Shown: positions 1-20,784 of the stretch, piece by piece | Layout of the letters: every line of letters starts with the position of its first letter | Numbering within the stretch: the stretch's first letter is position 1 | IMG/VR virus record: IMGVR_UViG_2585427760_000005 | Origin: a virus | Taxonomy: Duplodnaviria > Heunggongvirae > Uroviricota > Caudoviricetes | Strand: one strand, 5' to 3' | Length of the DNA stretch: 20,784 nt | Translations under genes and position numbers: made by a program | Notes under the pieces: generated by a model | What the model was told of the DNA's origin: nothing | The model's database searches: none | What the model saw: only the letters and a program-made list of their open reading frames with translations

Positions 1-245
1 CGGAAAATCGTGTTGAGGCCAACGCCCATAATGCGGGCGGTTGCCCGGCATCCAACGCCATTCATGGCCATATCAATGATTTTCTGGTGCGTACCGGGTT
101 GAGAAGCGGTGTAAGTGAACTGCAGTTGCCATGTTTTACGGCAGTGAGAGCAGAGATAGCGCTGATGTCCGGCAGTGCTTTTGCCGTTACGCACCACCCC
201 GTCAGTAGCTGAACAGGAGGGACAGCTGATAGAAACAGAAGCCAC
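1..245 (-). CDS. insA: IS1 InsA (transposition regulator), GTG start at 245-243, 3' end lies outside the window
   Basis: Minus-strand frame from the GTG at 243-245 reads (M)[22 protein letters not shown]...[11 protein letters not shown], the InsA sequence. The track ORF 62..274 is in a different frame and is not InsA. Confidence 0.8.
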
Positions 246-300
246 TGGAGCACCTCAAAAACACCATCATACACTAAATCAGTAAGTTGGCAGCATCACC
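1..300 (-). mobile_element. IS1 insertion sequence, left end (partial, truncated by window start); terminal inverted repeat ends at 300
   Basis: Reverse complement of 1-300 reads GGTGATGCTGCCAACTTACTGATTTAGTGTATGATGGTGTTTTTGAGGTGCTCCAGTGGCTTCTG..., which matches the IS1 left inverted repeat and insA region as I recall it, with one substitution noticed. Confidence 0.9.
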
Positions 301-526
301 AATTACGGGTGTTAGATTTGAAACGGCAGGATGTACGAAATGCTATAGCTGTAGCTGAAAATGCGGAAACGTTATTCAGTAGTGGGCTTGCCAATGACTA
401 TTAAGATCCTAAGATAAATTGAATATAAAATGGCCTTTTATAAATTGAAAGGCCAGAGTTATAAAGAATGTTTTTATATACTGATAAGCGGTTCCACTAG
501 TTAACTTAAATAAGTAGGTGATGGCT

Positions 527-2065
527 ATGAATTTAGGATTTTTTTTTGGTGCTGGTGCAGAAATTGGTTATGGTTTACCAAGTGGAGGCAAATTTGCCAT
601 TGATCTTTTTAGACAAGATCCAAGTCAGTATAAAACTGAGCTCCGCCAACAACTGCGATTAGTGGATTCACGCTCACCTTACGCCAATGATTGGCTACCT
701 CAGGGGTATGCTGATAAAAGCATTTATGCTTTTGGACGTAACGAGTTTTCCAGTATTATTGAATCATCTATCGAATATAAACGTGAAGAAATAATTCGCC
801 GTCTAAATCGTTTTGATCAAGAGTGTGATGATGCCCTATTAACTCTAGGAATTGATAAGGCCATATTAGAAAATTTATTTTCAGAGTTAACAGGACATGT
901 CATTGGTGAGCGTCTGTATACACATGATATTCGTCTTAACGAGTTACTAGCCAGAGATGTTAGGTTATTCGAGTCTGAATATTACTCTGCTATGTTGGAC
1001 GTAGTACGAGAATCAGATAACAATGATGATTTAAAAAGGTACGTCATATCATTTTTACAATTATTGGTCGGTGCACACGGACAATCTCTTGTTCAACGCC
1101 TAAACCAAGAGTTATTTGAGGCTGCACCGGATGATTTACCCATCTTCGATGATATTACCGGTATGTTCCGTCTGGAGTTTAATCGCATTGGTTCGACAGC
1201 TTTGGAACTATTGCTGGAAGAAAATAGAAATTTCAATATTGATGAGGATGCAACAGCTCTTACACTTTTCTGTGCTATAGCCCAAAAAGTATTAGAGAAT
1301 CTGTTCACTACAGTACTCGACTACCAGAAATTGATAGATGACCATTTCCGATATCTCTTCTCACCTTCCACAGAATGGGCTAAATTTACTCGGATGGTTA
1401 TTTTCCTCAAGATCGCACGCGATTATATTAGTTCCCAGGCACCATCTATCGAAGATCTTCCCGATCATGGCTATTATCATGACTTAGCTACATTTGATGG
1501 TGATCTAACAATTTCAGCCATTGGTACGGCTAATTATAACAGCCTTCTGGCAGAGGTTTTCCGTGGTATGAATATAGAATTACCACAAATTATTCACCTG
1601 AACGGCAGTGTACACGACTATTATAACCCTTATAAAAATGCGGTTATTACTTGTGAAAATCCAGATAACGTAGACCAACGTCAGATTCATGTTCCATTCA
1701 TGCTGACGCAAAGCGGTCTTAAGCCTTTAACATCAGTAACTATGTCAAGACGATACGTTAGTCTTTTTGATGCTTATGCTGAATCTGATGCTATTGTTGT
1801 TGTAGGTTTTGGATTTAATAAAGATGATAGCCATATTAATGGACTTTTCCGTGAACTGGTCGAAAATAAAGGACGGAAATTAATTCTTATTTCGAGGCGT
1901 GTGGATGGAAGTGTTGAAGAACAGAAACGGCGGTTGCGAAACAAACTGCGTATTTCGCATGAGTTTAACCATTTGCTAATAGTAATTCCAGTAGATGATC
2001 TCACAAGGTGTCAAGGTGACCGACTATGGTTAGAGCAAGTTGTTGATACTTTGAACGAGGGATAA
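527..2065 (+). CDS. Hypothetical 512-aa protein with SIR2-like (sirtuin-fold, NAD-binding) signature motifs; candidate single-gene defense NADase
   Basis: Long ORF. AGGTG Shine-Dalgarno at 515-519 favours the ATG at 527 over the track start at 518. N-terminal FFFGAGAEIGYGLPSG resembles the SIR2/ThsA GAGxS...G.P motif, and C-terminal VVVGFGFNKDDSHINGLF resembles the SIR2_2 G[FY]S[FL]xD motif. The gene is AT-rich compared with the prophage genes. Function is inferred from motifs only. Confidence 0.45.
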   Translation: MNLGFFFGAGAEIGYGLPSGGKFAIDLFRQDPSQYKTELRQQLRLVDSRSPYANDWLPQGYADKSIYAFGRNEFSSIIESSIEYKREEIIRRLNRFDQECDDALLTLGIDKAILENLFSELTGHVIGERLYTHDIRLNELLARDVRLFESEYYSAMLDVVRESDNNDDLKRYVISFLQLLVGAHGQSLVQRLNQELFEAAPDDLPIFDDITGMFRLEFNRIGSTALELLLEENRNFNIDEDATALTLFCAIAQKVLENLFTTVLDYQKLIDDHFRYLFSPSTEWAKFTRMVIFLKIARDYISSQAPSIEDLPDHGYYHDLATFDGDLTISAIGTANYNSLLAEVFRGMNIELPQIIHLNGSVHDYYNPYKNAVITCENPDNVDQRQIHVPFMLTQSGLKPLTSVTMSRRYVSLFDAYAESDAIVVVGFGFNKDDSHINGLFRELVENKGRKLILISRRVDGSVEEQKRRLRNKLRISHEFNHLLIVIPVDDLTRCQGDRLWLEQVVDTLNEG

Positions 2066-2116
2066 AGCAGCTGATGATGGTGCTATAACCATTATGGTTT
2101 CTATTAATACTCGCCA

Positions 2117-2139
2117 GCCCTTATCTCTCTGATAAGGGC
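2117..2139. terminator. Hairpin between convergent genes (9-bp stem GCCCTTATC/GATAAGGGC, 5-nt loop); putative bidirectional terminator
   Basis: Perfect inverted repeat lying between the 3' ends of the 527..2065 (+) and 2155..2778 (-) genes. No clear T-tract. Confidence 0.4.
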
Positions 2140-2154
2140 CCTAATTAATGCTAG

Positions 2155-2778
2155 TTAATTATTACTACACCCAAACGATCTATAACCGTCATCAAAGTTC
2201 TTGCTTTTCACTTTGGTGAGATAATCAATTCGATTCAGTAAATCGTCGGGATAAATATCATTAAGAATATCATCACGATTCAGGGTATATTTACCATTAG
2301 AAGGATACTGTACTAGGTGCTGTCCCTCTTCGGGAGTTATACTTAATGCGCTGCACCATGCCGAGGTGATCATAGTTCTTAACGTATCTTCATCAAGATT
2401 GAAATCCCCTAAGTGGTAGTAAGCATCCTTGTTCAGAAACAGAAATACGTGAAAATGACGCTTACCATTCTGGGTAAATTCCCTCACCCACGCATAGCGG
2501 AGCGTATTCGGGTGTACCCGTTTACCTTCTTTACGCTTGCGCTGTTCATCTGCTGCCAGTTTGGCTTTCAGTGAATTGGTAAATCTTGATATAGATCCTG
2601 AATCAGTATTAGCGATACAGGAAATAGTATCACCATTATCCAGCATAACCGGGTCATGCAGATCCACCCGTATTGCCAGTGTACGTCCGTGTTCTTTAAC
2701 AGATTTTGTAATAACATCGATAATCCTTTCTTTGTATGATTTAACATGACTGCCATACTCGCTATCGTAGATATTCAT
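2155..2778 (-). CDS. YagK/YfjJ-family protein (CP4-type prophage-island protein of unknown function)
   Basis: 207-aa ORF with a GGGGTG RBS 8 nt upstream. It sits downstream of the alpA/yfjI-like genes as in E. coli CP4-57, and its size matches YagK-like members. Family assignment is by synteny and recollection. Confidence 0.55.
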   Translation of the reverse strand: MNIYDSEYGSHVKSYKERIIDVITKSVKEHGRTLAIRVDLHDPVMLDNGDTISCIANTDSGSISRFTNSLKAKLAADEQRKRKEGKRVHPNTLRYAWVREFTQNGKRHFHVFLFLNKDAYYHLGDFNLDEDTLRTMITSAWCSALSITPEEGQHLVQYPSNGKYTLNRDDILNDIYPDDLLNRIDYLTKVKSKNFDDGYRSFGCSNN

Positions 2779-3002
2779 AATAATTCACCCCTCGATGGAT
2801 AACAGTCATCGCATTACTGGCTATGGCCTACTAGTGATATATATACAGGCATGGTTAATTGCAATATAATAACTATCCGACACTGAATTTTAGAAAAATA
2901 GTAGCCACAGCCTACGATGACTGATTGAAAGTTACTCTTTAATTAGTTGTAATGAAGATAGGTTAATAAAACAATTATTGCGTCCTATCTTTGTTCTGTT
3001 CG

Positions 3003-4415
3003 TTATATAAGAATATCAACAGGTTGTATGAAAATGGTTTTCCCTATCTTCTCCGCCCGTATTTTCTTTTGCGAATAAAGTGTACTGAGAAGCTCATTCG
3101 CTTTGCTCCGATTCCTGAACCGGTTCGGACCATATTGCAAGATGGTTGTCTTCCTGATATATGGCACCACACACCGGTAGCAATAATCTTTTATCCACGA
3201 ATAAAGTTCATCTGCTTCTGAACTAACCAACAGCAACGTCTGGGGTTTAGAGAAAATTCTCACATACTCATCCACATACCAGGCGCTTATCTCTACTGCG
3301 GCTTCTACGGCACTGAGGGGTATATCCCCTTCATCACCATTAAATTTATGCAGCAGAGCGGCAATCCTTGCCATATTTTCCGCCATTTTAGAGGCGTAAT
3401 CCTTAAAGCCAGACAGGAAGCCAATCAACCCCATTTCTGACTCGACCTTGTTATAAAATTCGATCCAGTTCTTTTCGGCTTCTGCAGAGAAACGTAGGCA
3501 CTGACGCGCATTTTCATCATTTCTGACAATGCTCTCGTTAACGATCTCCATCAATCGTTTATGAAATACCGGTAGATGCTCGCTTGATATAACCGGGCTG
3601 GTAATTTGTCTGTAACCCTGTGTTGAACTAGGCTGACACATCAAACACCGCGCGAAGAATCCGATCCCTTTCGCTGTATCGCCTTTACGCTCCAGATACC
3701 CTTTTTTGAACACATCAGGCTGAACCATCAACGACAGTGTCATTCTGGCGTCTTTGATTAATTTATCTGGCTCGCTTTTTCTTTCCACAGTAAACATTGC
3801 GCCATCCCACATTTTATTGATGAAAGGCAGTTCATTCAGCGCATAGCCGTTAAAAATGGTACCAGCTTCATCAGACATAAGCCCGATGGACCGCCAACAA
3901 CCACTGAGATAGTCTTTTATCGCCGCTGGTGTGGCATCATTGAATATCTGCCTGAACCTGACCGGTGCTTTCGGGTTCGCCGACAGCAGCGTTTTCAGCC
4001 GTTCATTCGTTGTGGAGTGATCTTTGTTACGGCGAATATCTGATTTCAGTTTTGATATCAGGGCTTTCTTTTCAATGTTAAAAGTCGTTTCCTCATTCCG
4101 CCAGATAATTAAATCTTGGGTATATTTTTCAAAGCATGCTTCTTCCAGTTGATACAATGGCTTCATTAGCAGTTTGTCCACCGTGCTTTTGCGTTCACCA
4201 GAATCCGCCAGTGTCAGTAAAAAAAGTGATACTGGGCTGCGCAGATTATTCAGTCGGCACACATCAATCCGGTTCTGGCAGGCAAGCGAAATAACCCCCA
4301 ACACCGATGCAGCAATCAAAGCCTGGGGTGCCTGCGTATGCTGTTCCACTTCATAAACCGCATTTCTGATGATCTGCGGGAAGACATGTACAGGGAAAGG
4401 ACGACCACACGACAT
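3003..4415 (-). CDS. yfjI: YfjI-like DUF3987-domain protein (primase/replication-associated protein of integrative islands)
   Basis: 470-aa ORF with a GAGAGG RBS, immediately downstream of alpA on the same strand. Size and position match E. coli YfjI (469 aa) of CP4-57. Confidence 0.65.
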   Translation of the reverse strand: MSCGRPFPVHVFPQIIRNAVYEVEQHTQAPQALIAASVLGVISLACQNRIDVCRLNNLRSPVSLFLLTLADSGERKSTVDKLLMKPLYQLEEACFEKYTQDLIIWRNEETTFNIEKKALISKLKSDIRRNKDHSTTNERLKTLLSANPKAPVRFRQIFNDATPAAIKDYLSGCWRSIGLMSDEAGTIFNGYALNELPFINKMWDGAMFTVERKSEPDKLIKDARMTLSLMVQPDVFKKGYLERKGDTAKGIGFFARCLMCQPSSTQGYRQITSPVISSEHLPVFHKRLMEIVNESIVRNDENARQCLRFSAEAEKNWIEFYNKVESEMGLIGFLSGFKDYASKMAENMARIAALLHKFNGDEGDIPLSAVEAAVEISAWYVDEYVRIFSKPQTLLLVSSEADELYSWIKDYCYRCVVPYIRKTTILQYGPNRFRNRSKANELLSTLYSQKKIRAEKIGKTIFIQPVDILI

Positions 4416-4545
4416 AGATACCTCTCATTCTATTAATTTAATAAATAATTCAGCGAAATGGCTATTCTGCTATTAATAGCGGAAATAGCAGGATGACTAC
4501 CGACAATCCGATGACAGCAATTGAGTATGAATTCATGTAGCATCC

Positions 4546-4758
4546 TCAAATAAGTTTGCTGCGTTGCGATAGCCATTCTTCAATCTCTGATTCAACCCAT
4601 CCAACAGATTTCACTCCGAGCATTCGCTTTTTGGGGAAGGAAGCATCGTAACGTGGTGATTTGGGGTTCAACCAATCGTAGATTGTTGCTCGTGCCATAC
4701 CAGTTTTTTGGATAACAGCAGGTAAGCGGAGTATCCTAACGGTTGATGGATTATTCAT
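4546..4758 (-). CDS. alpA: AlpA-family transcriptional regulator / excisionase-like small DNA-binding protein
   Basis: 70-aa product MNNPSTVRILRLPAVIQKTGMARATIYDWLNPKSPRYDASFPKKRMLGVKSVGWVESEIEEWL... is near-identical in pattern to E. coli AlpA (70 aa) as I recall it. AGAGG RBS upstream. Confidence 0.9.
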   Translation of the reverse strand: MNNPSTVRILRLPAVIQKTGMARATIYDWLNPKSPRYDASFPKKRMLGVKSVGWVESEIEEWLSQRSKLI

Positions 4759-4883
4759 GCTTGATTGCCTCTTATTAGTTCATTTTGGTTGTAGAAAGAT
4801 TAGCGGCAAGCATCAATGCAAAAAATCCGTGTACCAAAAAAACATTTTTTACAACACTTAACTAATTGATATTTGGTGTATTT

Positions 4884-5762
4884 ATGTTGTCAGCGATTGA
4901 GTTTTGCGAAGAAATTAGTCAAAAATCGGATTGGCTTGCTGGGCATATGGTCGAATGTGATTGGGACATATATGTTGATCTGCTCAGCGAAAGGTATCCC
5001 GTGATACAGAAGGAACTAAGCGAGATGCGAGATCAATTCTGGAATTCTGATAAGGTAGGAACACGTGTGATTTTGTACAGTGATCCATCTCGTAAGGAGT
5101 ATAAATATTGTACTGTTGACGGAGTGGAGCAATTAAAAGAAGAATATACAGAAGTATATGATCCAGCTCAGGAATGCTGGAAACAGTTAAAATCACGTAT
5201 TTTCAGGGAAACGTTTTGTCATCTTATTCAGGATGATTTTTTAATTAATGATGTGTTTAAGTCACATCTATTTTTTGCCTCAATGTCTTATCAATGGGCA
5301 AAATCAGTTATGTCGGAGAATGAATGTGTCGCTATTAAAGCGTTCATTAAGTCAGCTGAATTATTTGATAGATGTATTGGTATGTCATGGTTTCATGTTT
5401 CTGTATGTACCCAAAAAAAATTATCACATGTTAGAGCTAAGGCCGGAAAACAAGGTGGGAACAGTAAATCAGAAGTATATCGAATAATTCAAGATAAGCT
5501 TGTTTATTTGATCAATAACTCCGTACCTGAAGGTGGGTGGAAAAGTAAAGCAGCTGCGGTGAATGACCTCATTGACCCCTTATGGAAATTTGTCGAAGAG
5601 TCAAATTTTGAAATTAATAATCAAAGTAAAAAATATCGGATATCAACAATGAGCCCTGATGCATTGGCAGATACCATTATAAAAAACTGGTCAAGAAATA
5701 TTGAGAGTATCAAATTGGCTTTCGATAATACGGTTACTAGAAAAAAGAAAACCAAAGGGTAA
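4884..5762 (+). CDS. Hypothetical protein in the yfjH position (between integrase and alpA, divergent from alpA); possible island regulator
   Basis: ORF of about 293 aa from the ATG at 4884 (the track starts at a TTG at 4866). AT-rich with no recognisable motif. Position is equivalent to yfjH in CP4-57 and to the repressor slot of PICI-like islands. Confidence 0.5.
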   Translation: MLSAIEFCEEISQKSDWLAGHMVECDWDIYVDLLSERYPVIQKELSEMRDQFWNSDKVGTRVILYSDPSRKEYKYCTVDGVEQLKEEYTEVYDPAQECWKQLKSRIFRETFCHLIQDDFLINDVFKSHLFFASMSYQWAKSVMSENECVAIKAFIKSAELFDRCIGMSWFHVSVCTQKKLSHVRAKAGKQGGNSKSEVYRIIQDKLVYLINNSVPEGGWKSKAAAVNDLIDPLWKFVEESNFEINNQSKKYRISTMSPDALADTIIKNWSRNIESIKLAFDNTVTRKKKTKG

Positions 5763-5820
5763 AATTCCGTATTACCTATAGGTGAGTTATCAGCACCCAT
5801 AATGGGTGCTGATAAAGGAT

Positions 5821-7062
5821 TCATCCTACAAGACGTATTCCCCTAACCCCACTATTCACGATACTGCCGCTATCTGCTGCTTTAACAAAATCAGCCCACC
5901 ACTGCATCATCGGTCGTCGTTGCTCAAGATAGTCACTTCGATTGTAAGCGCGACGTACCTCATTCTTATCTACATGAGCAAGTGCAGCCTCAATAACATC
6001 AGGCGGAAATCCTTCCTCATTGAGTGCCGTACTGGCAATAGAACGTAAGCCGTGTGAAACGAGTACGCCTCCTAAACCAGCACGCTTAAGGGCTGCATTT
6101 ACTGTCTGGCTGTTCATCGGCTGGGTAGGCTTAATGCGACTGGGAAAGATAAATTCTCGACCACCGCTGAGAGACTTCATTATTTCCAGAATAGCGAGAG
6201 CTCCATCAGATAATGGAACCGTATGCTCCCGATTCATCTTCATTCGAGCAGCTGGAATTTTCCATTCGCTAGCATCGAAATCGATCTCATCCCATCGAGC
6301 CTCAGCAGCTTCGGCAGGGCGGGTGATGGTGAGAAGCTGCCACATGAACAGGCATCGTGTGGACAGGCTGATACTTGCCGTACGCATAGTCTGCATTAGC
6401 TGTGGAAGTTGACCTGGGTGGATGCTTGGCATGTTTTTCTTTTGCGGTTTCTCGAATGCTTTCCCGATGTTTACGCTGGGAACCGCATCAATCAGGCCTG
6501 TGTTCTGCGCATAAATCATGACTTCGTTAATACGCTGACAAAGGCGGCGGACTGTCTCTAATGCACCTCTGGCCTGAACCGGATGAACTGCTTTAACCAA
6601 AGTATGAGCCTTAATCTCAGTGACACTGATATCACCGATTGCCGGGAGAACATCCCTCTCAAGCGAGCGCCAGATATCGTCGGCATAGTCCTCTGTTACG
6701 CTGGCTTTCTTCACATTCCACCAACGCTCGGCAACTAACCGGAAAGTGTTGGTTTTGGCCTCTTGAGAATTTCTCACCTGTTCTTTCTGATGTTCCTGAG
6801 GATCAATGTCTTTCGCCAACAAAGCTCGAGATTCAGCTCTGAGTTTACGCGCATCAGAAAGGGAGACGGCTGGATAGGCTCCGAAGCTCTGCTTGGTTCG
6901 CTGCTTGGTCAGAGGTCGATAGTAACGGAACTGCCAGAGCTTACTACCGCTGGACTTGATTAGCAGAGTAAGCCCGTCACCATCATACAGCTGGTAATCG
7001 GCATCTTTAGGTTTGGCGGCTTTGATTTCCGTATCGGTTAACGGCTTGGTTTTTCTTGCCAT
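5821..7062 (-). CDS. intA: Tyrosine integrase, P4/CP4-57 IntA type (DUF4102 N-terminus plus phage-integrase catalytic domain)
   Basis: 413 aa from MARKTKPLTDTEIKAAKPKD, with a GGAG RBS about 8 nt upstream of the ATG at 7062. The C-terminal region has the R...HxxR...Y catalytic pattern (HGLRSIAST...AHVD...RRAY). Lies next to the ssrA att fragment as intA does in K-12. The track start at 7098 falls inside an upstream hairpin and is less likely. Confidence 0.85.
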   Translation of the reverse strand: MARKTKPLTDTEIKAAKPKDADYQLYDGDGLTLLIKSSGSKLWQFRYYRPLTKQRTKQSFGAYPAVSLSDARKLRAESRALLAKDIDPQEHQKEQVRNSQEAKTNTFRLVAERWWNVKKASVTEDYADDIWRSLERDVLPAIGDISVTEIKAHTLVKAVHPVQARGALETVRRLCQRINEVMIYAQNTGLIDAVPSVNIGKAFEKPQKKNMPSIHPGQLPQLMQTMRTASISLSTRCLFMWQLLTITRPAEAAEARWDEIDFDASEWKIPAARMKMNREHTVPLSDGALAILEIMKSLSGGREFIFPSRIKPTQPMNSQTVNAALKRAGLGGVLVSHGLRSIASTALNEEGFPPDVIEAALAHVDKNEVRRAYNRSDYLEQRRPMMQWWADFVKAADSGSIVNSGVRGIRLVG

Positions 7063-7185
7063 GGGGAGTCTCCATGCGTTTAGGCCCAACGAAAACAATA
7101 GAGCTTTTCGTTGGGCCTATCAATGGGCCTAAAAGGTTCGGATTTAATTAGTTCTCTTCGGACTTCGCGGGACAAATTCAGGGCA

Positions 7186-7219
7186 CAAAAAAGCCCGCAG
7201 GGCTTGCGCCGTGCGGGCT
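7186..7219 (-). terminator. Rho-independent terminator downstream of the ssrA 3' end (8-bp GC-rich stem plus T-tract on the minus strand)
   Basis: Stem AGCCCGCA (7192-7199) pairs with TGCGGGCT (7212-7219). On the minus strand it is followed by TTTTT (complement of 7186-7191). Confidence 0.6.
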
Positions 7220-7265
7220 CTTAGGACTTCATCGGATGACTCTGGTAATCACCGATGGAGAATTT

Positions 7266-7310
7266 TGGTGGAGCTGGCGGGAGTTGAACCCGCGTCCGAA
7301 ATTCCTACAT
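7266..7310 (-). other. ssrA: 45-bp fragment identical to the 3' end of ssrA (tmRNA); attachment-site core duplicate, not a complete tmRNA gene
   Basis: Minus-strand sequence ATGTAGGAATTTCGGACGCGGGTTCAACTCCCGCCAGCTCCACCA matches the tmRNA 3' end (T-arm and CCA). Sequence 5' of it (beyond 7310) has no tmRNA similarity. Confidence 0.8.
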
Positions 7311-7426
7311 ACCATTTTTATACTAATAAAAGCATACATTTACTTTTAAAATCATCACCTTATTGTTTTTTGTGTTTGTCGGGTTTTATGTGATTTTAAG
7401 TCCTTGCCGCCAAAATGCCGCCATTA

Positions 7427-8618
7427 TTACTTATCCTCGATGGCGTCATACTCAAGCAAGTTATCCATACACTTCTCGAGTTTGTAGAAGTCGGTGAGGG
7501 GATAGAGGTGAACAATACTATCGTCAAAATTCTTGATCCCTGACAGGCGCTCAGTGCGTCTCAAAAACCTTGACGCTGACTTTACTTTGTCTCCCTCATC
7601 CGGCTCGCATGTGTATTCTAGTGTTTTGAGTACTTGCCAAGATACGGGAGGAGTTAGCTTAAACATTTTAATTAATTTTGGACAAAAATCCTTTGAGATA
7701 GTTTGTTGGTAAGTAACTTTTGGTGGGAGTACAACGTTGATTGACTTGTCTCCATCATTTGTTTTAACCATTTTAGTTGATCTGTAAGCGATACCAACAA
7801 TGTTAGAATTTCCTCGGCGGCTGATCCATTGCATTAATAAATTAGGGATGATGTATTCCTGAGTAAACGATGTGCTGCTATTTTTTTTTTCTAAAGTTAC
7901 AAGCATAAATTAAAGGCATCAAACAAATATATGACATTTTTGTAAGATATGGCATTTCGTCGTCATTAACTATGCCATAAAATCGTGAGTATAGAATTTC
8001 GGAAGTGAAGTCTAATATTTTAGAATCCTTTTCATTTGATGAGTAAGAGGATATATATAATTTATCAAAGTCTGGCTTATCCATTTCCAGCCAGCAGACA
8101 TACAAGGAAGAGCCAAGATATAAGCAGGGTAAGCCTGCAACAGAGTATCTTTGCGCATTGACTAGATGCCGCATAGAGAAAGGAATATGAAACATCTCTT
8201 TTCTATCTTTTATAGATGAGTCGGATTTTCTGACCCGGAAAAGAGGCTTGGATTCGTTGCATATCTTATTAAGTGGCGTGGATATGTGGTGAATATAACG
8301 AAATGTTGCATTGTCAGAAAATGTACTGTCAAAAATGTCATACGCTGATTTTATGTCACCAGATAAAAATTTTTCCAAGGAAAGTACTATGCCAAAATAT
8401 ATCTCACTTATTTTTTCTAAACGTCGGCCAATTCTCTTGGATAATTCATTGTCATTGTTTTCAGCATAGTCATTTATAATGTTGAAGTAGATTTGACATT
8501 TATTCTTGAAATCACTGATTATGTCGGACTCTACCGTAAATGGTAAGTTTAATCTTTTTTCTTTGACTGTAAGTGAAAATATTTTATTTAAGCCGTCAGA
8601 TAAACTCTCGCTTCCCAT
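7427..8618 (-). pseudogene. AT-rich gene with RES-domain-like motif (candidate NAD-targeting toxin/defense effector), split into 246-aa and 159-aa ORFs by a +1 frameshift in an A10 homopolymer (T10 at 7881-7890 on the + strand)
   Basis: ORFs 7878..8618 and 7427..7906 overlap by 29 nt in adjacent frames. ORF1 ends ...NFRKKK* inside the A10 run, and a run of A9 would read ...RKKNSSTSF... straight into ORF2 for a roughly 400-aa product. The motif FRVRKSD...RYSVAGLPCLYLGSSLYVCWLEM resembles the RES-domain core. An AAGGA RBS overlaps the stop codon of the upstream integrase. Confidence 0.45.
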
Positions 8619-8627
8619 TTTTTATCC

Positions 8628-9650
8628 TTACGAATAGTTTAATGAATGGAGTGGGTTCTTTGTCACCGCATCCTCAAGATGATCTGGTGCAAAATGGGCA
8701 TATATCATCGTCATTTTTATATCTGCATGGCCTAGGATATCGCGCAGCACAAGGATGTTTCCACCGTTCATCATAAAGTGGCTGGCGAAAGTATGTCGCA
8801 GTACGTGTGTGCATTGGCCCTCAGGTAAATCGATGCCTGCCCGTTTTACCGCACGCTCAAAGGCTTTTCTGCATGGCGTGAATAACTTCCCTCGATTCTT
8901 TGGTAGTTCGTCATACAGAGCCTGCGATATAGGTACGGTCCGGTTTTTCTTACCTTTGGTTTTGGTGTACGTGATTCGGTATTTTGATAACTGATGGCCC
9001 TGCAGGTTTTCGGCTTCACTCCAGCGGGCGCCGGTCGCTAAGCAAATTTTTGCAATCATCAGCAGGCTGGGGCTTTGAGAATTGGCGCAGGCATCCAGCA
9101 GGCGCTTAATTTCTTCCGGAGCAAGGAACGCCAGTTCACCTTCTGCGATCTTGAATGTTGGCAGTCCGGCGAGCGGGTTGGGTGCGGACCAGTGGCCCAG
9201 CTTTTTCAGCGTGCCAAAAACTGATGATAGGTTTCGCTGTTCCAGGTTTACCGTGCGGGGCTTAACCGGTGACATAAGCACGCCATCTTCATTTTTGACC
9301 TCACCTTTTAGGCGCGCTTCACGGTATTTAGTAAAGTCTCCAGCAGTCAGCTCTGAGGCAATGGGATCACCCAGTCCATTACAAATAATGCTGAGTTTCG
9401 CCATCAGGCGCTTAGGGTCCGCAAGAGTCTGCCCGTAAAGTGAATGCCATTGTTGAATCACTTCTGACAACTGACGCCTATCATCCTTTTCACCTAACCA
9501 TGGCTTTTTGTTCACTTCATCCATTGTGAAGTTTTCAAATGCTATAGCTTCGCCTTTCGTCGCAAATTGCTTGCGTACGCGTTTGCCATCGCGCCCGCTA
9601 GGGTAGCACTCGCACAACCATTTTCCGTTTGGCTGTTTTCTTATAGTCAT
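8628..9650 (-). CDS. int: Tyrosine integrase, P2/186-family phage type
   Basis: 340-aa product. N-terminus MTIRKQPNGKWLCECYPSGRDGKRVRKQFATKGEAIAFE and C-terminal ...ATGARWSEA...HVLRHTFASHFMMNGGNILVLRDILGHADIKMTMIYAHF follow the P2 Int pattern as recalled (P2 Int is 337 aa). Confidence 0.85.
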   Translation of the reverse strand: MTIRKQPNGKWLCECYPSGRDGKRVRKQFATKGEAIAFENFTMDEVNKKPWLGEKDDRRQLSEVIQQWHSLYGQTLADPKRLMAKLSIICNGLGDPIASELTAGDFTKYREARLKGEVKNEDGVLMSPVKPRTVNLEQRNLSSVFGTLKKLGHWSAPNPLAGLPTFKIAEGELAFLAPEEIKRLLDACANSQSPSLLMIAKICLATGARWSEAENLQGHQLSKYRITYTKTKGKKNRTVPISQALYDELPKNRGKLFTPCRKAFERAVKRAGIDLPEGQCTHVLRHTFASHFMMNGGNILVLRDILGHADIKMTMIYAHFAPDHLEDAVTKNPLHSLNYS

Positions 9651-9652
9651 GT

Positions 9653-10285
9653 TTAGAGGCTCTTGATCACTTTTACAGCACGTCCGATAGCTTCAATATC
9701 ATCTACTGAGCATTCAAACGAAGATTCATCCTGATGGACCGCTAATTTGTTTCCTGGAAGCCGTGTTAATTTCACGATGCTTTTAACCCCATCAATATCA
9801 ACGAGCCATAGTCCATTTGTAATCTGTTTCAGTGATTGATCGACTACATAACTTTCATGAGCATTGTTGACGAATAAACAGTGAACAGGTTCATTCGGGA
9901 GAATGCTGTGATCGAGGTGAATATCCTCATTATCAGTTAAGCAGCCATTTTCTAGCGTTACTTGCTTGATCGATGGCGCGACAAGCTTTGCAAGAGGTCG
10001 AATTGTAGGTGAGGTCTCATTTTGAGGTTTTTTTACAGCCTCGTTTTGAGCGTACATCTCACCATGGCCAGTAGCCAACCACAGTAAAGAAACCCCCGTT
10101 TCGAGCGCGCACTGAATTACCCAGTCAGCAGGGAAGCTATCACGTAACAGTCTGTTTGACATAGTGCTTTTTGAAACGCCAAGCTGCTCACTTAGAGCCT
10201 GCTTTGTCTTAAGCCCATAAGCCTTTTGCAGCCGATCGATAGCTTCTCTACCCCCTGAATCGGCACCCATTGAAATACTCGCCAT
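9653..10285 (-). CDS. cI: Phage CI-type immunity repressor (186 CI-like, HTH N-terminal domain)
   Basis: A GGAG RBS 7 nt upstream supports a start at 10285 (MASISMGADSGG...). The segment AYGLKTKQALSEQLGVSKSTMSNRL...CALETGVSLLWLATGHGE is HTH-like and resembles 186 CI. Located between int and a divergent apl-like gene. The track start at 10375 would run through the operator region. Confidence 0.7.
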   Translation of the reverse strand: MASISMGADSGGREAIDRLQKAYGLKTKQALSEQLGVSKSTMSNRLLRDSFPADWVIQCALETGVSLLWLATGHGEMYAQNEAVKKPQNETSPTIRPLAKLVAPSIKQVTLENGCLTDNEDIHLDHSILPNEPVHCLFVNNAHESYVVDQSLKQITNGLWLVDIDGVKSIVKLTRLPGNKLAVHQDESSFECSVDDIEAIGRAVKVIKSL

Positions 10286-10406
10286 TGAAAAACTCCGTTT
10301 GACAACCTTGAATCGGGATCGTAATGTTGCGTTGACTCTTGAATTGAGGTCTTGAGAGTCGACATAAAACGACATAAAACGAATCTAAACCGAGAGATAC
10401 TGCACT
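10286..10406. promoter_or_regulatory. Lysis-lysogeny switch region between divergent cI and apl-like genes; contains an exact 10-bp tandem direct repeat GACATAAAAC x2 (10361-10380)
   Basis: Intergenic region between the divergent repressor and early operon, with the tandem repeat visible in sequence. Promoter and operator positions were not resolved. Confidence 0.4.
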
Positions 10407-10652
10407 ATGAGCACTGAGATTTCAATTCGTGTACCAAAAGTGATAGCGACGCCAGCCGAATTTGCTGAATGGGAAGGCTATTCCCGTGGTTCGGTTTATC
10501 AGATGATTCATAACGGTAAACTGGCTAACTACATTGAAAAGAAAGAAAAAAACAAAGGCCGTGTATTCATCCTTTACCTTAAGTACAAAAAGGAGCAAGC
10601 GCGTAAAAACATGGACCAATCAGCCTTTAACTACAACGTAGTTGTCGGTTAG
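10407..10652 (+). CDS. Apl/Cox-like small excisionase-regulator (first gene of the early lytic operon)
   Basis: 81-aa ORF divergent from cI, basic C-terminal half, in the position of 186 apl / P2 cox. Confidence 0.55.
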   Translation: MSTEISIRVPKVIATPAEFAEWEGYSRGSVYQMIHNGKLANYIEKKEKNKGRVFILYLKYKKEQARKNMDQSAFNYNVVVG

Positions 10653-10687
10653 TAAGTTCAATTATGAGAACTTTCTAAGGGGGTTAC

Positions 10688-11197
10688 ATGTTTGATTATA
10701 AGATTTCCAAACATCCGCATTTTGACGACGCTTGCCGCGCTTTTGCGTTGCGTCACAACATGGCGAAGCTGGCAACCAGCGCCGGAATGAACGTCCAGAC
10801 TCTGCGCAACAAGTTGAACCCGGACCAGCCGCACCAACTGACGCCGCCGGAAATCTGGCTGCTGACTGATATCACTGAGGATTCCACGCTGGTTGATGGT
10901 TTCCTGGCCCAGATTCACTGCCTGCCGTGTGTGCCGCTGAATGAAGTGGCAAAAGAAAAAATGCCGCAGTACGTCCTCAAAGCCACTGCCGAGATCGGCC
11001 GTGTTGCTGCAAGTGCGGTTTCAGGTGTTCAACTGAACGCGACCACCCGCCGCCAGGTTGTTGAAAGCGTCAATTCTGTTACCCGTCTAATGGCTCTTAC
11101 CGCTATTTCACTGCAGGCGCGGTTACAAGCTAACCCGGCAATGGCCAGTGTTGTCGATACCGTGACGGGACTTGGCTCTTCGTTTGGGCTGAGCTGA
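10688..11197 (+). CDS. cII: CII-like regulatory protein (phage 186 CII type)
   Basis: 169-aa ORF with an AAGGGGG RBS, immediately after the apl-like gene. 186 CII is 169 aa as I recall. Call rests on synteny and size. Confidence 0.6.
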   Translation: MFDYKISKHPHFDDACRAFALRHNMAKLATSAGMNVQTLRNKLNPDQPHQLTPPEIWLLTDITEDSTLVDGFLAQIHCLPCVPLNEVAKEKMPQYVLKATAEIGRVAASAVSGVQLNATTRRQVVESVNSVTRLMALTAISLQARLQANPAMASVVDTVTGLGSSFGLS

Positions 11198-11198
11198 G

Positions 11199-11405
11199 GT
11201 GTATATGCTGAACAATGAACCATCTTTTGCATCACTGCTTGTTAAGCAAAGCCCGGCCCCGCACTACGGTCACGGCTGGATCTCTGGAACGGATGGCAAG
11301 CGCTGGCATCCATGCCGCTCGCAGGATGCGCTGCTGGCTGACCTGTCCACATCAAAACAGGGGAAACCATGGCTATTGAAGGCGATGCTGCGACTGTTCC
11401 GCTAA
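11199..11405 (+). CDS. Hypothetical small early protein (fil/dhr region of 186-like phages)
   Basis: 68-aa ORF with a GAGGTG RBS. Confidence 0.45.
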   Translation: MYMLNNEPSFASLLVKQSPAPHYGHGWISGTDGKRWHPCRSQDALLADLSTSKQGKPWLLKAMLRLFR

Positions 11406-11710
11406 GTGCTGGCCTCCGCCTTAATGGGTTAAACCACATCGCGGAATTAAGGGCGAAAGTGTTTGGCTTAAATACTGATTCAGAACTAGGGCGCTTTATT
11501 AGCGATATGCGGGACCAACGGGATATTAACCATGAGCAGAATAAACGCGCACTAGCCGCAATATTCTTTATGGCAAAAATTCCGGCGGAACGTCATAGCG
11601 TCAATGTTAGTGAGCTGACGACTGACGAAAAGCGGGAGCTGATTAAAGCAATGAACCATTTCCGTACAGTGGTGAGCTTATTTCCAACTCGGCTAGCCAT
11701 GCCGAATTAA
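11369..11710 (+). CDS. Hypothetical early protein
   Basis: 113-aa ORF overlapping the previous ORF by 37 nt in another frame. Start is uncertain. Confidence 0.4.
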   Translation: MAIEGDAATVPLSAGLRLNGLNHIAELRAKVFGLNTDSELGRFISDMRDQRDINHEQNKRALAAIFFMAKIPAERHSVNVSELTTDEKRELIKAMNHFRTVVSLFPTRLAMPN

Positions 11711-11777
11711 CCAACCACAGAAATTAAAGGCGTAAACCCGCCGGGCATTCCTTTGCTCAAATTCAGGAGAACGAACG

Positions 11778-12011
11778 ATGCGAAATATTGAAACCCGAAT
11801 CACCAAAAGCGGCCCAGATGATGCTGGCCTTAACCAGCTGCTGACGGATGCGCGTATGGAAGAACGCCGCGCACGTGCTGCTGCAATGGCTGCCCGCCTC
11901 GATAGCCTGGCTAGCCGTATTACTTCCCGTCAGCTTAACCATGTTGAGGCGGCAGAGCTGCTGCGTGTCGCAGCTGAAAACATCCAGAACGAAGCGCAGG
12001 AGATCCACTGA
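11778..12011 (+). CDS. Hypothetical early protein (Ala/Arg-rich, probably helical)
   Basis: 77-aa ORF with an AGGAG RBS. Its stop overlaps the next start (TGATG). Confidence 0.5.
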   Translation: MRNIETRITKSGPDDAGLNQLLTDARMEERRARAAAMAARLDSLASRITSRQLNHVEAAELLRVAAENIQNEAQEIH

Positions 12012-12238
12012 TGGCTGATTCTATGGACCTTGTACAGCAGCGCGTTGAAGAAGAACGCCAGTGCCATATCCACCACGCCCGCAGCCGAAAGGCTGGGGCT
12101 TCTTCTCTTGAGTGCGAGAGCTGCGAAATTGTCATTCCGGCAGAACGCCGTGCTGCAGTTCCGGGCTGTGATCTTTGCGTAACCTGCCAGGAAATTGCAG
12201 AGCTGAAAGGCAAGCATTACGTAGGGGGTGCTGTATGA
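12011..12238 (+). CDS. TraR/DksA-family C4 zinc-finger protein
   Basis: 75-aa product with CxxC...CxxC (CESCEIVIPAERRAAVPGCDLCVTCQE), the pattern of phage TraR-like proteins. Confidence 0.6.
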   Translation: MADSMDLVQQRVEEERQCHIHHARSRKAGASSLECESCEIVIPAERRAAVPGCDLCVTCQEIAELKGKHYVGGAV

Positions 12239-12519
12239 CTACCGAGAAACTGACTAATCCGCTGACTGATAGCGAATTATCGCGACTGATTTGGGGCCTG
12301 AAAGCGGAAGGGTTTCACCCGCGCCTATTGGCTGGCTTAGTAGAGCTGCAGCAGCGCCGTCAGGCCAATGCAGAGATTGATATGGCACCAATAAAAATTC
12401 CTCCTGCCGTATTCGATTTGATTTATCAGGAATGCGAGGGGTTTGTAGATTGTCCAGCCAATCCTCAAGTGATTTGGGAAGCCTGCCGTGCAGCGATGCT
12501 GAAAGGCGGTGCTGAATGA
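12235..12519 (+). CDS. Hypothetical early protein
   Basis: ATG at 12235 overlaps the upstream stop (ATGA). About 94 aa. The track start at 12175 lies inside the previous gene. Confidence 0.5.
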
Positions 12520-12815
12520 ATATCAAAGCCCATACCTTAAAAATTGCACCGAAACACCTTAATGATGTTATGGCGGGGAAAAAAAAAGCTGAATTAAGAC
12601 GGGATGATGATCGCGGTTATAAAGCCGGTGATGTTCTTGTTTTGTGTGAATGGAAACATGGCAAATATACCGGGCGCGAATGGACGGCTGTAATCACTCA
12701 TATCCTGCCAGTTTGCGACGTTATTAATAATGTTGATGGCTGGGTGATGCTCTCTATTCGTTCACTGAATCCAATTGATGCAATGTTCTATATGCTTTCA
12801 GGAGGTGCTGCATGA
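12516..12815 (+). CDS. DUF3850/ASCH-like small protein
   Basis: 99-aa ORF, ATGA-coupled to its neighbours. The pattern [24 protein letters not shown]...GDVLVLCEW resembles DUF3850 (ASCH-fold) proteins. Confidence 0.45.
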
Positions 12816-13657
12816 GCACCATCCTGAAATGGGCTGGCAATAAAACTGCCATCATGCCGGAATTGAAAAAACATCTGCCAGCAGGCCAGCGCCTTGTTGA
12901 ACCTTTCGCGGGTTCGTGCGCTGTCATGATGGCGACAGACTATCCTCATTATCTTGTCGCAGATGTTAATCCTGATCTGATAAATCTGTATCAAGCAATT
13001 AAAGATGACGTTAACGGATTTGCTCACTTGGCTGAGCGGGTTTTTTCTAAGTTCACAACGGAAGAAGCCTATTATAAATGCCGTCAGTATTTTAATACTG
13101 CGCCTTTGGATTACATGGACAAGGCGGCTTATTTTCTTTTCCTTAATCGCCATTGTTATCGCGGGTTATGCCGTTATAACCAGCGCGGCCTGTTTAACGT
13201 CCCGTACGGTAATTACAAAAAACCTTATCTGCCCGTTAATGAAATACGTGCATTTGCCGAAAAGGCAAAGCGTGCCACCTTCATTTGCGCCAACTATGAG
13301 GAAACATTGGCAATGCTGCAGCCGGGGGATGTTATCTACTGCGACCCTCCGTATGACGGTACATTTTCCACTTACCACACTGACGGATTTACTGAGGATG
13401 ATCAGTATCATCTGGCGTCTATCCTTGAACGTCGCTCATCAGAAGGTCATCCGGTCATCGTGTCCAATAGCGACACATCCCTGACCCGTTCACTTTATCG
13501 TAATTTTACCCACCATCGCATCACTGCAAAACGCAGCATGGGCGTGGCTGCCGGTGAAGGTAAATCTGCAGCTGAAATCATCGCGACGAAATCAGCTGTT
13601 TGCTTCGGTGTAGATCTTGCCAGCTGTACAAACCGTTATGTTGAGGTGCGCGTATGA
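12812..13657 (+). CDS. dam: DNA adenine methyltransferase, Dam family (orphan, phage-encoded)
   Basis: 281 aa with [48 protein letters not shown] and the catalytic DPPY motif ([10 protein letters not shown]), collinear with E. coli Dam. Confidence 0.88.
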
Positions 13658-14973
13658 ACCATTCCGCAGCAGTAATTGTGCCTACAGATATCAGTGTGAT
13701 GGTTCGTGAAATAGAGGTTTCATACAACCACTTTCTGAATGAATTTCGTATTCCAGCTGATCACAAAATTGTCGTTAACTTCTCTGCCGGAAAAGACAGC
13801 ACGACAACAGCGGCAATTGCACATCATCTTTTTGGTGATCGCGTACAAAACGTAATGGCTGATACAGACAATGAACATGAATTAACCGTCGACTTTGCGC
13901 GAAATATTCATCATCAAATTGGTTGTAAGCCTGTGCAGATAGTTAAGCGTATATACACCGAGGTTGAATTTGAACGTCGCCGTAAATCGCTTAATGAGCG
14001 CTGGTCAAAGCGTCAGGCGATCCGCATGGGCGCTTATCGTGGCGTAATTATGCCATCACTGGCGAGATCAGATACCAAATTTGGTCAGGAATGGCTACGT
14101 ACTGCTGAACGCTGGGGGATTCAGTTTGAAACGGCTCTGGAGGCTGCTCTTTCAGTCATGCACCCGACTGGTAATAGCTTTCTCGATGCCGCTCTGTTGC
14201 ACGGCAAATTCCCGATGATGCGCGATCGCTTTTGTACTGATGAACTCAAGATTCAAATCGCGTTCGATGCGGCAATAAAACCACTTCTTGATGATGGTGA
14301 GGTGGTCGTTCAGTGGTCTGGAGTGCGTGCAGATGAGTCCGACAAACGCGCCGGTTACGCAAGATTTGCACACGATGAACGCGATCCAAACTTTCTCTAT
14401 AACTTCCTGCCAATCCATAAATGGACGGCGGCTAATGTTTTCGCCTTACATAAATATTTCGGTATTAAACCAAACCCACTTTACCTGCAAGGCGCTGACC
14501 GTGTTGGCTGCATGAACTGTGTTTTATGTACCAAAGAAGAAATTGCGCAGACTGCAGCACGCTGGCCTGAGCATATCGAAAAACATCATGAGTGGGAGAA
14601 AAAAGTACGGCTGGCATCGCGCTGGGTTCACTGGATGAGCATCGGCACAGTTAGCCAGTCATGGATGCGTGCTCAGTTAGGCGTTAGAGATGTTATCCGG
14701 TTTGAACTCGATGAAGTGACGGGAGAGGAAGTAGCGCGACGTAGGCGCTATCCAGTCAATCTAGGCCAGAATGTGAAACTGTATGGACTGGAGCCAGATG
14801 TTCAGCACATCGACTGGTCAGGATTCTATGGTCCGCGTGGAAATATGGGGGCTCCGTCAGCGCTTGATGTTGTCGAATGGGCCAAGACTGGTCGTGGTGG
14901 CAAGGTCTACGACTTAGTCAAAGCCAGTATGGACACTTCAGTGTGCTCATCACGATATGGTCTTTGTGAATGA
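13654..14973 (+). CDS. PAPS-reductase-like (PP-loop ATP pyrophosphatase superfamily) protein, phage-encoded; possible DNA-modification enzyme
   Basis: 439 aa with the PP-loop motif [10 protein letters not shown] near the N-terminus and a cysteine cluster (CMNCVLC) later. ATGA-coupled to dam upstream and to gene A downstream. Confidence 0.65.
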
Positions 14974-19079: not shown

Positions 19080-19268
19080 CATACGTCATGCAGTTGCATG
19101 AAAACCACTACACAAAGCGGGCAGGCGTGGCGGGGATACGAGCGCGCGCTGGCACTTTGGATGATCGCTTCACCTGTATGAATGACCACCTTGAAAACTT
19201 GATTGTTCTGGACTTAAGTATGTACTTTATATTCGGAATAATCCGAATTGCTGAAAAGGATTCATGTG

Positions 19269-20290: not shown

Positions 20291-20784
<494 letters not shown>

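Follow-up and report, generated by a model that had tools for sequence, protein, structure and literature searches.

We have analyzed a stretch of 20,784 nucleotides of viral DNA (Caudoviricetes; IMG/VR record IMGVR_UViG_2585427760_000005), referred to in full as the window, and within it a gene for a RES-domain-like protein that lies directly downstream of a P2-type integrase gene (int) and is interrupted at a homopolymer. An exact look-up identifies the source as contig JOSR01000287.1 of assembly GCA_000713815.1, from Escherichia coli 1-250-04_S3_C2; the contig is recorded for three samples, which may or may not be independent assemblies. The strain name gave no match in a literature search. 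The minus strand was read from position 8900 to 7200 together with the list of open reading frames (ORFs), giving two ORFs that are one base out of register. A reading made earlier from the letters alone (the sequence-only reading) had described two adjacent-frame ORFs of 246 and 159 amino acids meeting at a T10 tract of the plus strand at 7881-7890, and all these elements are present in the sequence. On the coding strand the tract is a run of ten adenines (A10), covering the codons R243(A)-K244-K245-K246, with TAG directly after it; this stop codon of the first ORF is generated by the one additional A. The version with nine adenines (A9), which is the ancestral state, reads AGA AAA AAA AAT AGC. 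Removal of one A joins the frames through ...F242-R243-K244-K245-N246-S247... into a protein of 396 amino acids, where the sequence-only reading had anticipated one of about 400, and an identical protein already exists on record.

The positions of the features are collected in Table 1. The gene is AT-rich, with a G+C fraction of 0.357 (int, 0.489; whole window, 0.449), and its AAGGA Shine-Dalgarno sequence, which sits 6 nt before the ATG, overlaps the TAA stop codon of int, both as previously noted; the gap from stop to start is 9 nt. The A10 run is the longest homopolymer of the 20.8-kb window. When the mononucleotides of this AT-rich gene are shuffled, about 6% of the shuffled sequences contain a run of at least nine A or T. 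By itself the run is unremarkable; its significance lies in its match with the frame break, and in the exact fused protein that is recorded elsewhere.

Table 1. Features of the window discussed in the text (positions in the whole stretch; residue numbers are those of the fused protein)
Feature	Position	Strand	Remarks
Whole disrupted gene	7427..8618	-	Predicted 396-aa stand-alone RES-domain protein if the run is A9
ORF1, 246 aa	8618..7878	-	Ends ...ACNFRKKK*; N-terminal helical bundle (1-112) and first half of the predicted RES domain
Listed ORF2, 159 aa	7906..7427	-	ATG at 7906
Out-of-frame second half of the gene	7427..7880	-	Last predicted RES core strands and C-terminal helices
A10 run (T10 on the plus strand)	7890..7881	-	Site of overlap of both ORFs
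Predicted RES (ADP-ribosyltransferase-superfamily) domain	7652..8258	-	Residues 121-322; straddles the frameshift
Catalytic-type residues before the break	8085..8237	-	R128 8237-8235; R130 8231-8229; R157 8150-8148; Y167 8120-8118; E178 8087-8085
Conserved residues after the break	7736..7780	-	S280 7780-7778; N294 7738-7736
int stop codon TAA (8630..8628) overlapping AAGGA Shine-Dalgarno of the RES-like gene	8625..8630	-	Seen in the sequence
Tyrosine integrase of 186-like (P2-family) prophage	8628..9650	-	Pfam Int_N and Phage_integrase
Replication gene A (GPA)	14970..17387		Further up from int
ssrA (tmRNA) 3' fragment, att repeat bounding the prophage	7266..7359	-	Rfam tmRNA 39.3 bits, E 4e-14
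ssrA terminator	7205..7191	-	
Second integrative element	1..5800 and 5821..7098		Includes P4-type integrase and AlpA-like gene
515-aa ORF	518..2065	+	In the island with the P4-type integrase
T9 run	539..547		Near the start of the 515-aa ORF
YagK/YfjJ	2155..2778		Second element
DUF3987	3003..4415		Second element
298-aa ORF	4866..5762	+	Directly after the P4-type integrase
P4-type integrase	5821..7098	-	Arm-DNA-bind_3 / Phage_int_M / Phage_integrase
A9 run	12579..12587		In frame, within the DUF3850 gene
Early region	12812..14973	+	Methyltransferase and PAPS-reductase-domain genes
383-aa ORF	19248..20399	+	N-terminal half of AAA_13 / PADLOC PDC-S06 ATPase
IS5 end	20291..20784		

Are these two genes, or a single gene that has been broken? 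The 396-residue fused translation is exactly that of a protein (P0123) found on 42 contigs (76 index blocks), one accession of which comes from the sibling isolate 1-250-04_S3_C1, another colony from that stool sample, and BLASTP likewise gives 100% identity to P0001. The 246- and 159-residue products are recorded on the contig of the window only. A search of 5.8 billion proteins returned 300 matches, every one a single protein of about 395-425 amino acids, from Enterobacter, Klebsiella, Salmonella, E. coli, Cronobacter, Citrobacter, Serratia and other genera. An exhaustive HMMER search (E ≤ 1e-3) gave 2,454 cluster representatives at 50% identity, typically 360-400 amino acids long, with matches covering both halves, and the 396-position PHROGs profile phrog_7835, of unknown function, matches over its full length (E 2e-168). 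There is no Shine-Dalgarno sequence before the ATG of the second ORF in the sequence. Since the homologs are single proteins and this ATG lacks a ribosome-binding site, a natural two-gene arrangement is not what is found, and the possibility of two naturally separate genes is ruled out. Homologs encoded as separate genes with starts of their own, which would have contradicted the sequence-only reading, did not appear. The comparison indicates that both ORFs are parts of a single gene, which the homopolymer interrupts.

The databases present the broken gene differently. RefSeq lists it as two hypothetical proteins, WP_249402772.1 (246 amino acids) and WP_249402771.1 (159 amino acids), and not as one pseudogene; the GenBank products are KEO18291.1, which is the 246-residue product, and the 45-residue KEO18290.1. 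Partial forms of the gene are found elsewhere. The profiles phrog_12013 and phrog_37055 represent C-terminal pieces only (residues 179-393 and 262-393 of the fused protein), and a 314-residue form from Salmonella Lille (P0126, on 5 contigs) diverges past residue 305; truncated or split copies thus recur through different lesions.

What kind of protein would the intact gene encode? An AlphaFold2 model built on 52 homologs has a predicted local distance difference test (pLDDT) score of 87.2 and a predicted template-modeling (pTM) score of 0.89. In the model a five-helix N-terminal bundle (residues 6-112) is followed by a mixed alpha/beta core, with strands at 126-131, 166-169, 187-193, 200-203, 273-279 and 293-297, and by three C-terminal helices (339-387). 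Comparison of the model with the Protein Data Bank (PDB) by Foldseek places the RES phosphorylase of nicotinamide adenine dinucleotide (NAD+), MbcT, at the top (6fkg_B; probability 1.00, E 9.7e-3, 253 columns), followed by weak matches to a PARP domain and to two toxins, heat-labile enterotoxin and cholera toxin A; the model has an ADP-ribosyltransferase-like fold that resembles those of solved RES toxins. The same search against the viral structures of BFVD gave nothing significant.

Sequence profiles point in the same direction. The aRES proteins are stand-alone RES proteins of 300-600 amino acids, defined by a RES domain together with the domain PF18870, which shield E. coli from phages by converting NAD+ into ADP-ribose-1''-phosphate (ADPR-1''-phosphate) (Osterman et al., bioRxiv 10.64898/2026.01.28.702374). 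Alignment by hhalign of the family profile with 40 aRES proteins, each positive for Pfam RES (PF08808), matched residues 121-322 to aRES residues 175-377 over 185 columns (probability 87.7%, E 3.4e-6), and the alignment with the single aRES sequence of E. coli UC5 gave E 2.5e-5. Relatives of the window protein reach Pfam RES directly, 17 of 52 close relatives at E ≤ 0.1 and 30 of 76 distant ones at E ≤ 0.01, the best at 2.3e-8. Residue conservation was scored over 150 family representatives of 25-48% identity. Six residues are invariant (H144, R157, G162, P164, Y167 and E178) and a further six are at least 90% conserved (R128, R130, R150, S159, S280 and N294), and these include the R...E...S residues of RES domains, the region-1 arginine and the tyrosine essential in MbcT. 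The assignment of a divergent RES domain is thereby supported. The sequence-only reading had recognized a RES-like core in the upstream ORF; the Pfam, Foldseek and hhalign matches bear this out, and a lack of RES-fold similarity in the fused protein, which would have spoken against it, was not what we found.

How would the frameshift affect such a protein? One extra A in the A9 run (codons R243-N246), in what is predicted to be a variable surface loop, would shift the frame after residue 245, so that translation ends at residue 246. The shortened product retains R128, R130, R157, Y167 and E178, and loses the helix 253-267, the strands 273-279 and 293-297, S280, N294 and the C-terminal helices. 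Judged from the model, loss of two core strands should prevent folding. Because these strands go together with S280, N294 and the C-terminal helices, the 246-residue product is most likely inactive. RNA polymerase slips on runs of nine or more adenines, and frameshifts that create such runs may leave genes partly functional (PMC1088944). Since the polymerase slips in this way some A9 transcripts are to be expected from the A10 allele, and these may give a little full-length protein; any such leakage would be incidental and not designed, as there is no sign of selection for it.

The shifted allele is rare. The cluster of alleles at 90% identity comprises about 225 contigs with a full-length gene (P0122 on 138 contigs, P0123 on 42 and P0124 on 34, plus several smaller groups), and the window allele alone stops at the tract, that is 1 in about 226. 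When the locus was compared by Megablast with 5,426 complete E. coli genomes, only its int end was matched, and with 50,697 phage records there was no match, so that the RES-like gene is absent from both sets at ≥85% nucleotide identity.

The tract site was aligned across 18 loci; a comparison of tract length in homologous loci had been proposed in the sequence-only reading. A9 is found in the lineage of the window, in five independent loci (L001, L003, L004, L005 and L028), and A3 to A8 elsewhere. Alleles that are 89-90% identical read AGAAAAAAGAAC, i.e., AGA AAA AAG AAC, or AGA AAA AAG CAC (A6); two further lineages have A8, the phages RE-2010 and Cartapus A7, and a 75%-identical Citrobacter copy A3. 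The encoded amino acids are variable (R/K-K-K/N-N/H), and the model places them in a loop flanked by helices 234-239 and 253-267. The A9 run differs from the nearest other alleles by synonymous changes of AAG to AAA and AAC to AAT, which is consistent with drift in a gene so rich in A and T. With tract lengths of 6-14 bases permitted, a pattern search gave a single additional locus (A9) among the IMG/VR viral contigs, and no matches in metagenome contigs.

These data bear on two ways in which the tract might be a device. It could be a contingency locus, in which slipped-strand mispairing of the A tract turns expression of a RES gene that is costly or toxic on or off, colony C1 being on and C2 off. 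Runs of A9-A10 are established as hypermutable (PMC1088944), one stool sample yielded a colony with the on allele and another with the off allele, and it is plausible that a toxic NADase would be subject to switching. However, on and off alleles are not both common (about 225 contigs in frame and one shifted), the pattern search returned A9 as the only length among viral contigs and nothing from metagenomes, and orthologs have not kept the tract: alleles 89-90% identical are without it, the synonymous AAG AAC standing in its place, and A3 to A8 occur elsewhere. E. coli is not known to employ long mononucleotide tracts as phase switches. We regard this account as very improbable.

Alternatively the A10 out-of-frame arrangement could itself be the functional state, with transcriptional slippage, or +1 ribosomal frameshifting at AAA-AAA-TAG, setting a fixed ratio of 246- to 396-residue products. 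The run has the length of nine or more adenines at which bacterial RNA polymerase slips (PMC1088944), a stop codon follows it directly, and in the tssM1 gene of Citrobacter rodentium an A11 run gives about 20-25% of frame-shifted product (PMC4256274). Against this, every homolog is in frame, none having the out-of-frame layout, and the tract is not conserved; repair of the frame would moreover need the loss of one A or the gain of two, unlike the +1 of tssM1. Although some incidental leakage is likely, the data do not support a design selected to make two products, and we consider programmed recoding scarcely credible.

Both phase variation and programmed slippage are thus disfavored because the tract is not conserved, shows no length polymorphism and is shifted in one of about 226 contigs. 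Of the four causes put forward by the sequence-only reading, phase variation and transcriptional slippage therefore recede, while sequencing error and decay of the gene both remain candidates. The conclusion that emerges from the alignments is that the A9 run is lineage-specific and accidental, and that the interruption is an ordinary one-off slip or an assembly error; designed switching or recoding of any kind appears highly improbable.

Is the additional base real? An independent metagenome assembly (scaffold L003) corresponds to window positions 1427..14618, with 0 mismatches and 1 gap over 13,191 nt, and the sole gap is the extra A in the tract. It is possible, though less likely than not, that the strain truly carries A9 and an intact gene, the extra A having arisen in the assembly of the draft GCA_000713815.1. 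The A10 allele is recorded on one contig only, the sibling 1-250-04_S3_C1 carries the intact protein, L003 is the same over 13 kb save for this one base, and the longest homopolymer of the contig is exactly where an error would be expected. On the other side, no other indel separates the two assemblies in the 13-kb overlap, within which the 9-nt run at 12579 is identical in both; a systematic homopolymer error in the contig was rejected on these same observations. The contig ends within IS5, as is typical for short-read assemblies, and on short-read platforms consensus errors at 10-nt runs are uncommon. Weighing these points, we give somewhat more credence to a real mutation, arising recently by replication slippage at a mutational hot spot, than to an error of assembly. 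Apart from the tract, the window has a T9 run near the start of the 515-residue ORF, and the A9 run at 12579 lies in frame within the DUF3850 gene.

The setting of the gene is that of phage cargo. Upstream of it the CI repressor gene and int lie on the same strand, and further up are an apl/cox-like gene, CP76 (cII), Fil and DUF5347. From its gene content the prophage is a 186-like member of the P2 family (Peduoviridae) at ssrA. ARAGORN found no complete tmRNA in the window, and the similarity between the window and L004 stops at position 7100. The tmRNA 3' fragment and the ssrA terminator lie downstream of the RES-like gene, which is therefore placed between int and the ssrA-derived repeat of the attachment site (att); integrase, neighboring genes and tmRNA fragment agree with the cargo position assigned to it in the sequence-only reading. 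The gene stands directly after int with the same 9-nt spacing in RE-2010, SopEPhi and Cartapus, and after int in at least 10 prophage loci from other genera. Neither in the window nor in at least 10 homologous loci does an antitoxin-like partner gene adjoin it.

In P2-like phages the interval between int and att is a minor defense hotspot, holding 3% of systems (2026 survey, PMC13586616). Distant Bacteroidales homologs of the RES-like gene adjoin a pair of reverse transcriptases, the R subunit of a type I restriction system together with GmrSD, and an HNH protein, and two representatives of the family are fused to restriction-endonuclease domains.

In the classical P2 defense hotspot between GpA and GpQ, the 383-residue ORF is the N-terminal half of an AAA_13 / PADLOC PDC-S06 ATPase (profile positions 1-334 of 732), a gene interrupted at codon ~347 by IS5 (junction GGAAGGTGCGAA; target TTAG). 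In L036 and L037, whose identity to the window as far as 20290 is 99.98% and 99.9%, the gene is intact (777-779 amino acids) and has the portal and terminase genes after it. This second lesion leans towards a real mutation at the tract: two independent knock-outs of defense-type cargo in one prophage would fit decay, or selection against costly genes.

A second integrative element, with a P4-type integrase, an AlpA-like gene, DUF3987 and YagK/YfjJ, abuts the prophage at ssrA, so that two elements are arranged in tandem at one tmRNA site; it is lacking in L004. Its 515-residue ORF has weak C-terminal SIR2-like matches (PADLOC Aga_SIR2 / SIR2, E 3e-6; Pfam SIR2_2, 1.4e-4, below the cut-off) and may be another NAD+-linked defense candidate. 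The 298-residue ORF, of G+C fraction ~0.35, occupies the position of the main P4-satellite defense hotspot and has no Pfam or PADLOC match. In the early region, just upstream of replication gene A, a Dam-like methyltransferase gene (MethyltransfD12, 281 amino acids) is followed by one for a 439-residue PAPS-reductase-domain protein; a DUF3850 gene precedes the pair.

Taking the domain and its setting together, we think it probable that the gene is a stand-alone, aRES-like, NAD+-targeting defense gene that has been knocked out in this isolate. Co-transcription with the cI-int lysogenic operon, and translational coupling to it, are probable, and the gene would thus be expressed in the lysogen. 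The intact protein of 396 residues would combine the five-helix N-terminal bundle with a RES domain of ADP-ribosyltransferase type (R...R...Y...E...S...N) and the C-terminal helices. By homology with MbcT and aRES it would consume NAD+, likely by phosphorolysis to ADPR-1''-phosphate and nicotinamide. The trigger may be infection by another phage, with the N-terminal helical domain a likely regulator or sensor, and the outcome a growth arrest that protects the lysogen population, as expected of a single-protein abortive-infection effector. Homology and context are observed; an NAD+-depleting defense role for the family is what they suggest by analogy.

Several observations weigh against this reading, in addition to those that favor an assembly artefact. 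Pfam RES scores only 13.5 bits on the fused protein itself, over residues 139-179 (E 0.072; gathering threshold 23.2). The Foldseek match to MbcT has an E value of just 9.7e-3, with a target-normalized TM-score of 0.54, and the hhalign probability of 88% is below 95%. Profile searches of PDB sequences with close and broad alignments found no RES chain, and gave spurious helical-bundle matches at the N-terminal domain. PF18870, the second feature that defines aRES, was matched neither by the window protein nor by the 52 close and 76 distant relatives. As to function, neither PADLOC nor NCBIfam has a model that matches the protein, co-transcription with int is read from the spacing alone, and the sequence would fit NAD+ phosphorolysis and a ParT-like ADP-ribosylation of proteins alike.

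Some RES-domain toxins (ParT) modify proteins instead of degrading NAD+. The gene might accordingly have another function, encoding a ParT-like protein ADP-ribosyltransferase, an addiction toxin for maintenance of the prophage, or a lysogenic-conversion factor. The marked divergence of the domain from canonical RES and the lack of a PADLOC model would be consistent with this. However, no antitoxin-like gene is adjacent, the nearest solved structure is that of the NAD+ phosphorylase MbcT, the nearest characterized architecture is that of stand-alone aRES, and distant members of the family lie in defense-gene neighborhoods; we judge such a function unlikely.

The identity of the RES-like gene outweighs the frameshift in interest, the latter appearing as a singleton indel at a homopolymer. 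From the searches, the gene represents a widespread family, as yet unannotated, whose members are stand-alone RES-domain proteins with a fixed place beside int in P2-like prophages. With 2,454 clusters at 50% identity it is a large family, and it is without annotation at the Pfam level, phrog_7835 being listed as 'unknown function'. If an aRES-like defense role is correct, it would provide a second architecture for immunity by RES-based depletion of NAD+ and would populate the little-studied int-att hotspot of P2-like phages, and the contrasting N-terminal domains could reveal what triggers RES enzymes. The naturally null allele and its intact, isogenic counterpart from another colony of that stool sample form a ready control pair. 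A more ambitious synthesis, to which we attach little credence, would be that the A9/A10 run acts as a within-host dimmer of an NAD+-cleaving effector, C1 giving the full dose and C2 a low, slippage-dependent dose as a 'pseudo-pseudogene'; that loss or attenuation of the gene together with the IS5 knock-out reflects selection in the gut against costly prophage defenses; and, separately, that the intact family is a second, structurally distinct class of stand-alone RES anti-phage proteins, a class with an N-terminal sensor domain of its own, in the int-att hotspot of P2-like phages.

How does the gene compare with known systems? Its nearest phage orthologs are in the Peduoviridae: gp01 of Salmonella phage RE-2010, its counterpart in SopEPhi, and gp33 of Escherichia phage Cartapus share 43-51% identity over 96-99% of the length. 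All are hypothetical or putative only, Cartapus gp33 being annotated 'putative RES protein, NAD+ binding domain', and they are intact single ORFs whereas the window copy is frameshifted. YopC of Bacillus SPbeta is more distant (29% identity over 72% of the length); a literature search on it gave nothing relevant. As in the 'pseudo-pseudogenes' and tssM1, the frameshift of the window lies inside a run of at least nine adenines, and some in-frame mRNA would be expected; it differs in that the out-of-frame state is not conserved, and that the correction needed is -1 or +2 and not +1.

MbcT (Rv1989c; PDB 6FKG) cannot function without R27, R47 and Y58, while E69 makes a contribution and S126 is the last member of the R-E-S motif (PMC6436930). 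The order R27...R47...Y58...E69...S126 is paralleled by R130...R157...Y167...E178...S280 of the window protein, and the spacings are closely similar (R47-11-Y58-11-E69 compared with R157-10-Y167-11-E178). In contrast, MbcT has about 186 residues and is neutralized by an adjacent Xre-family antitoxin, whereas the window protein has 396, including additional domains at both termini. The RES-like gene is not flanked by an antitoxin gene of the Xre family (COG5642 type), the nearest helix-turn-helix protein being the CI repressor two genes upstream. A RES-Xre type II toxin-antitoxin module was rejected on these grounds, the absence of an antitoxin gene and a length of 396 residues where such toxins have ~150-200.

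The closest resemblance is to aRES. Members of that family from E. coli UC5, K. pneumoniae and Enterobacter chengduensis have ~459 residues and are named 'RES family NAD+ phosphorylase' by NCBI; the UC5 protein, taken from Table S4 of the preprint (bioRxiv 10.64898/2026.01.28.702374), matches Pfam RES at 3.8e-14 and HEPN_RES_NTD1 at 3.6e-4, and most aRES homologs carry PF18870. The window protein is likewise the product of a single gene without an operonic partner, its 396 residues fall within the range of 300-600, its RES domain is homologous, and both occur in mobile or defense contexts of the Enterobacteriaceae. In the alignment R128/R130, R157, Y167, E178, S280 and N294 correspond to R182/R184, R215, Y225, E236, S334 and N349. 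Paired motifs (window/aRES) are LFRVRK/LFRARV, YRST/FKST and SINVVL/GYNVVL, R157...G162...Y167...E178 pairs with R215...G220...Y225...E236, and the KST and YNVV motifs of aRES fall at S280 and N294.

Other features differ. The N-terminal regions do not align, aRES beginning with a CxxC...CxxC Zn-ribbon-like element and HEPN_RES_NTD1 (PF18870). The RES domain of the window protein carries some 50 inserted residues (~195-250) and is extended by helices at its C-terminal end, and it scores below the Pfam RES threshold. No protein is common to the list of aRES homologs and the list of matches to the window protein, and the 1-250-04 isolates are absent from the published list of aRES genes, in which isolates of sibling projects appear for other genes. 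Given the different N-terminal domain and the separate match lists, membership of the published aRES family is rejected. With aRES the window protein thus has in common the catalytic domain and the stand-alone architecture, but not PF18870, the feature that completes the definition of that family.

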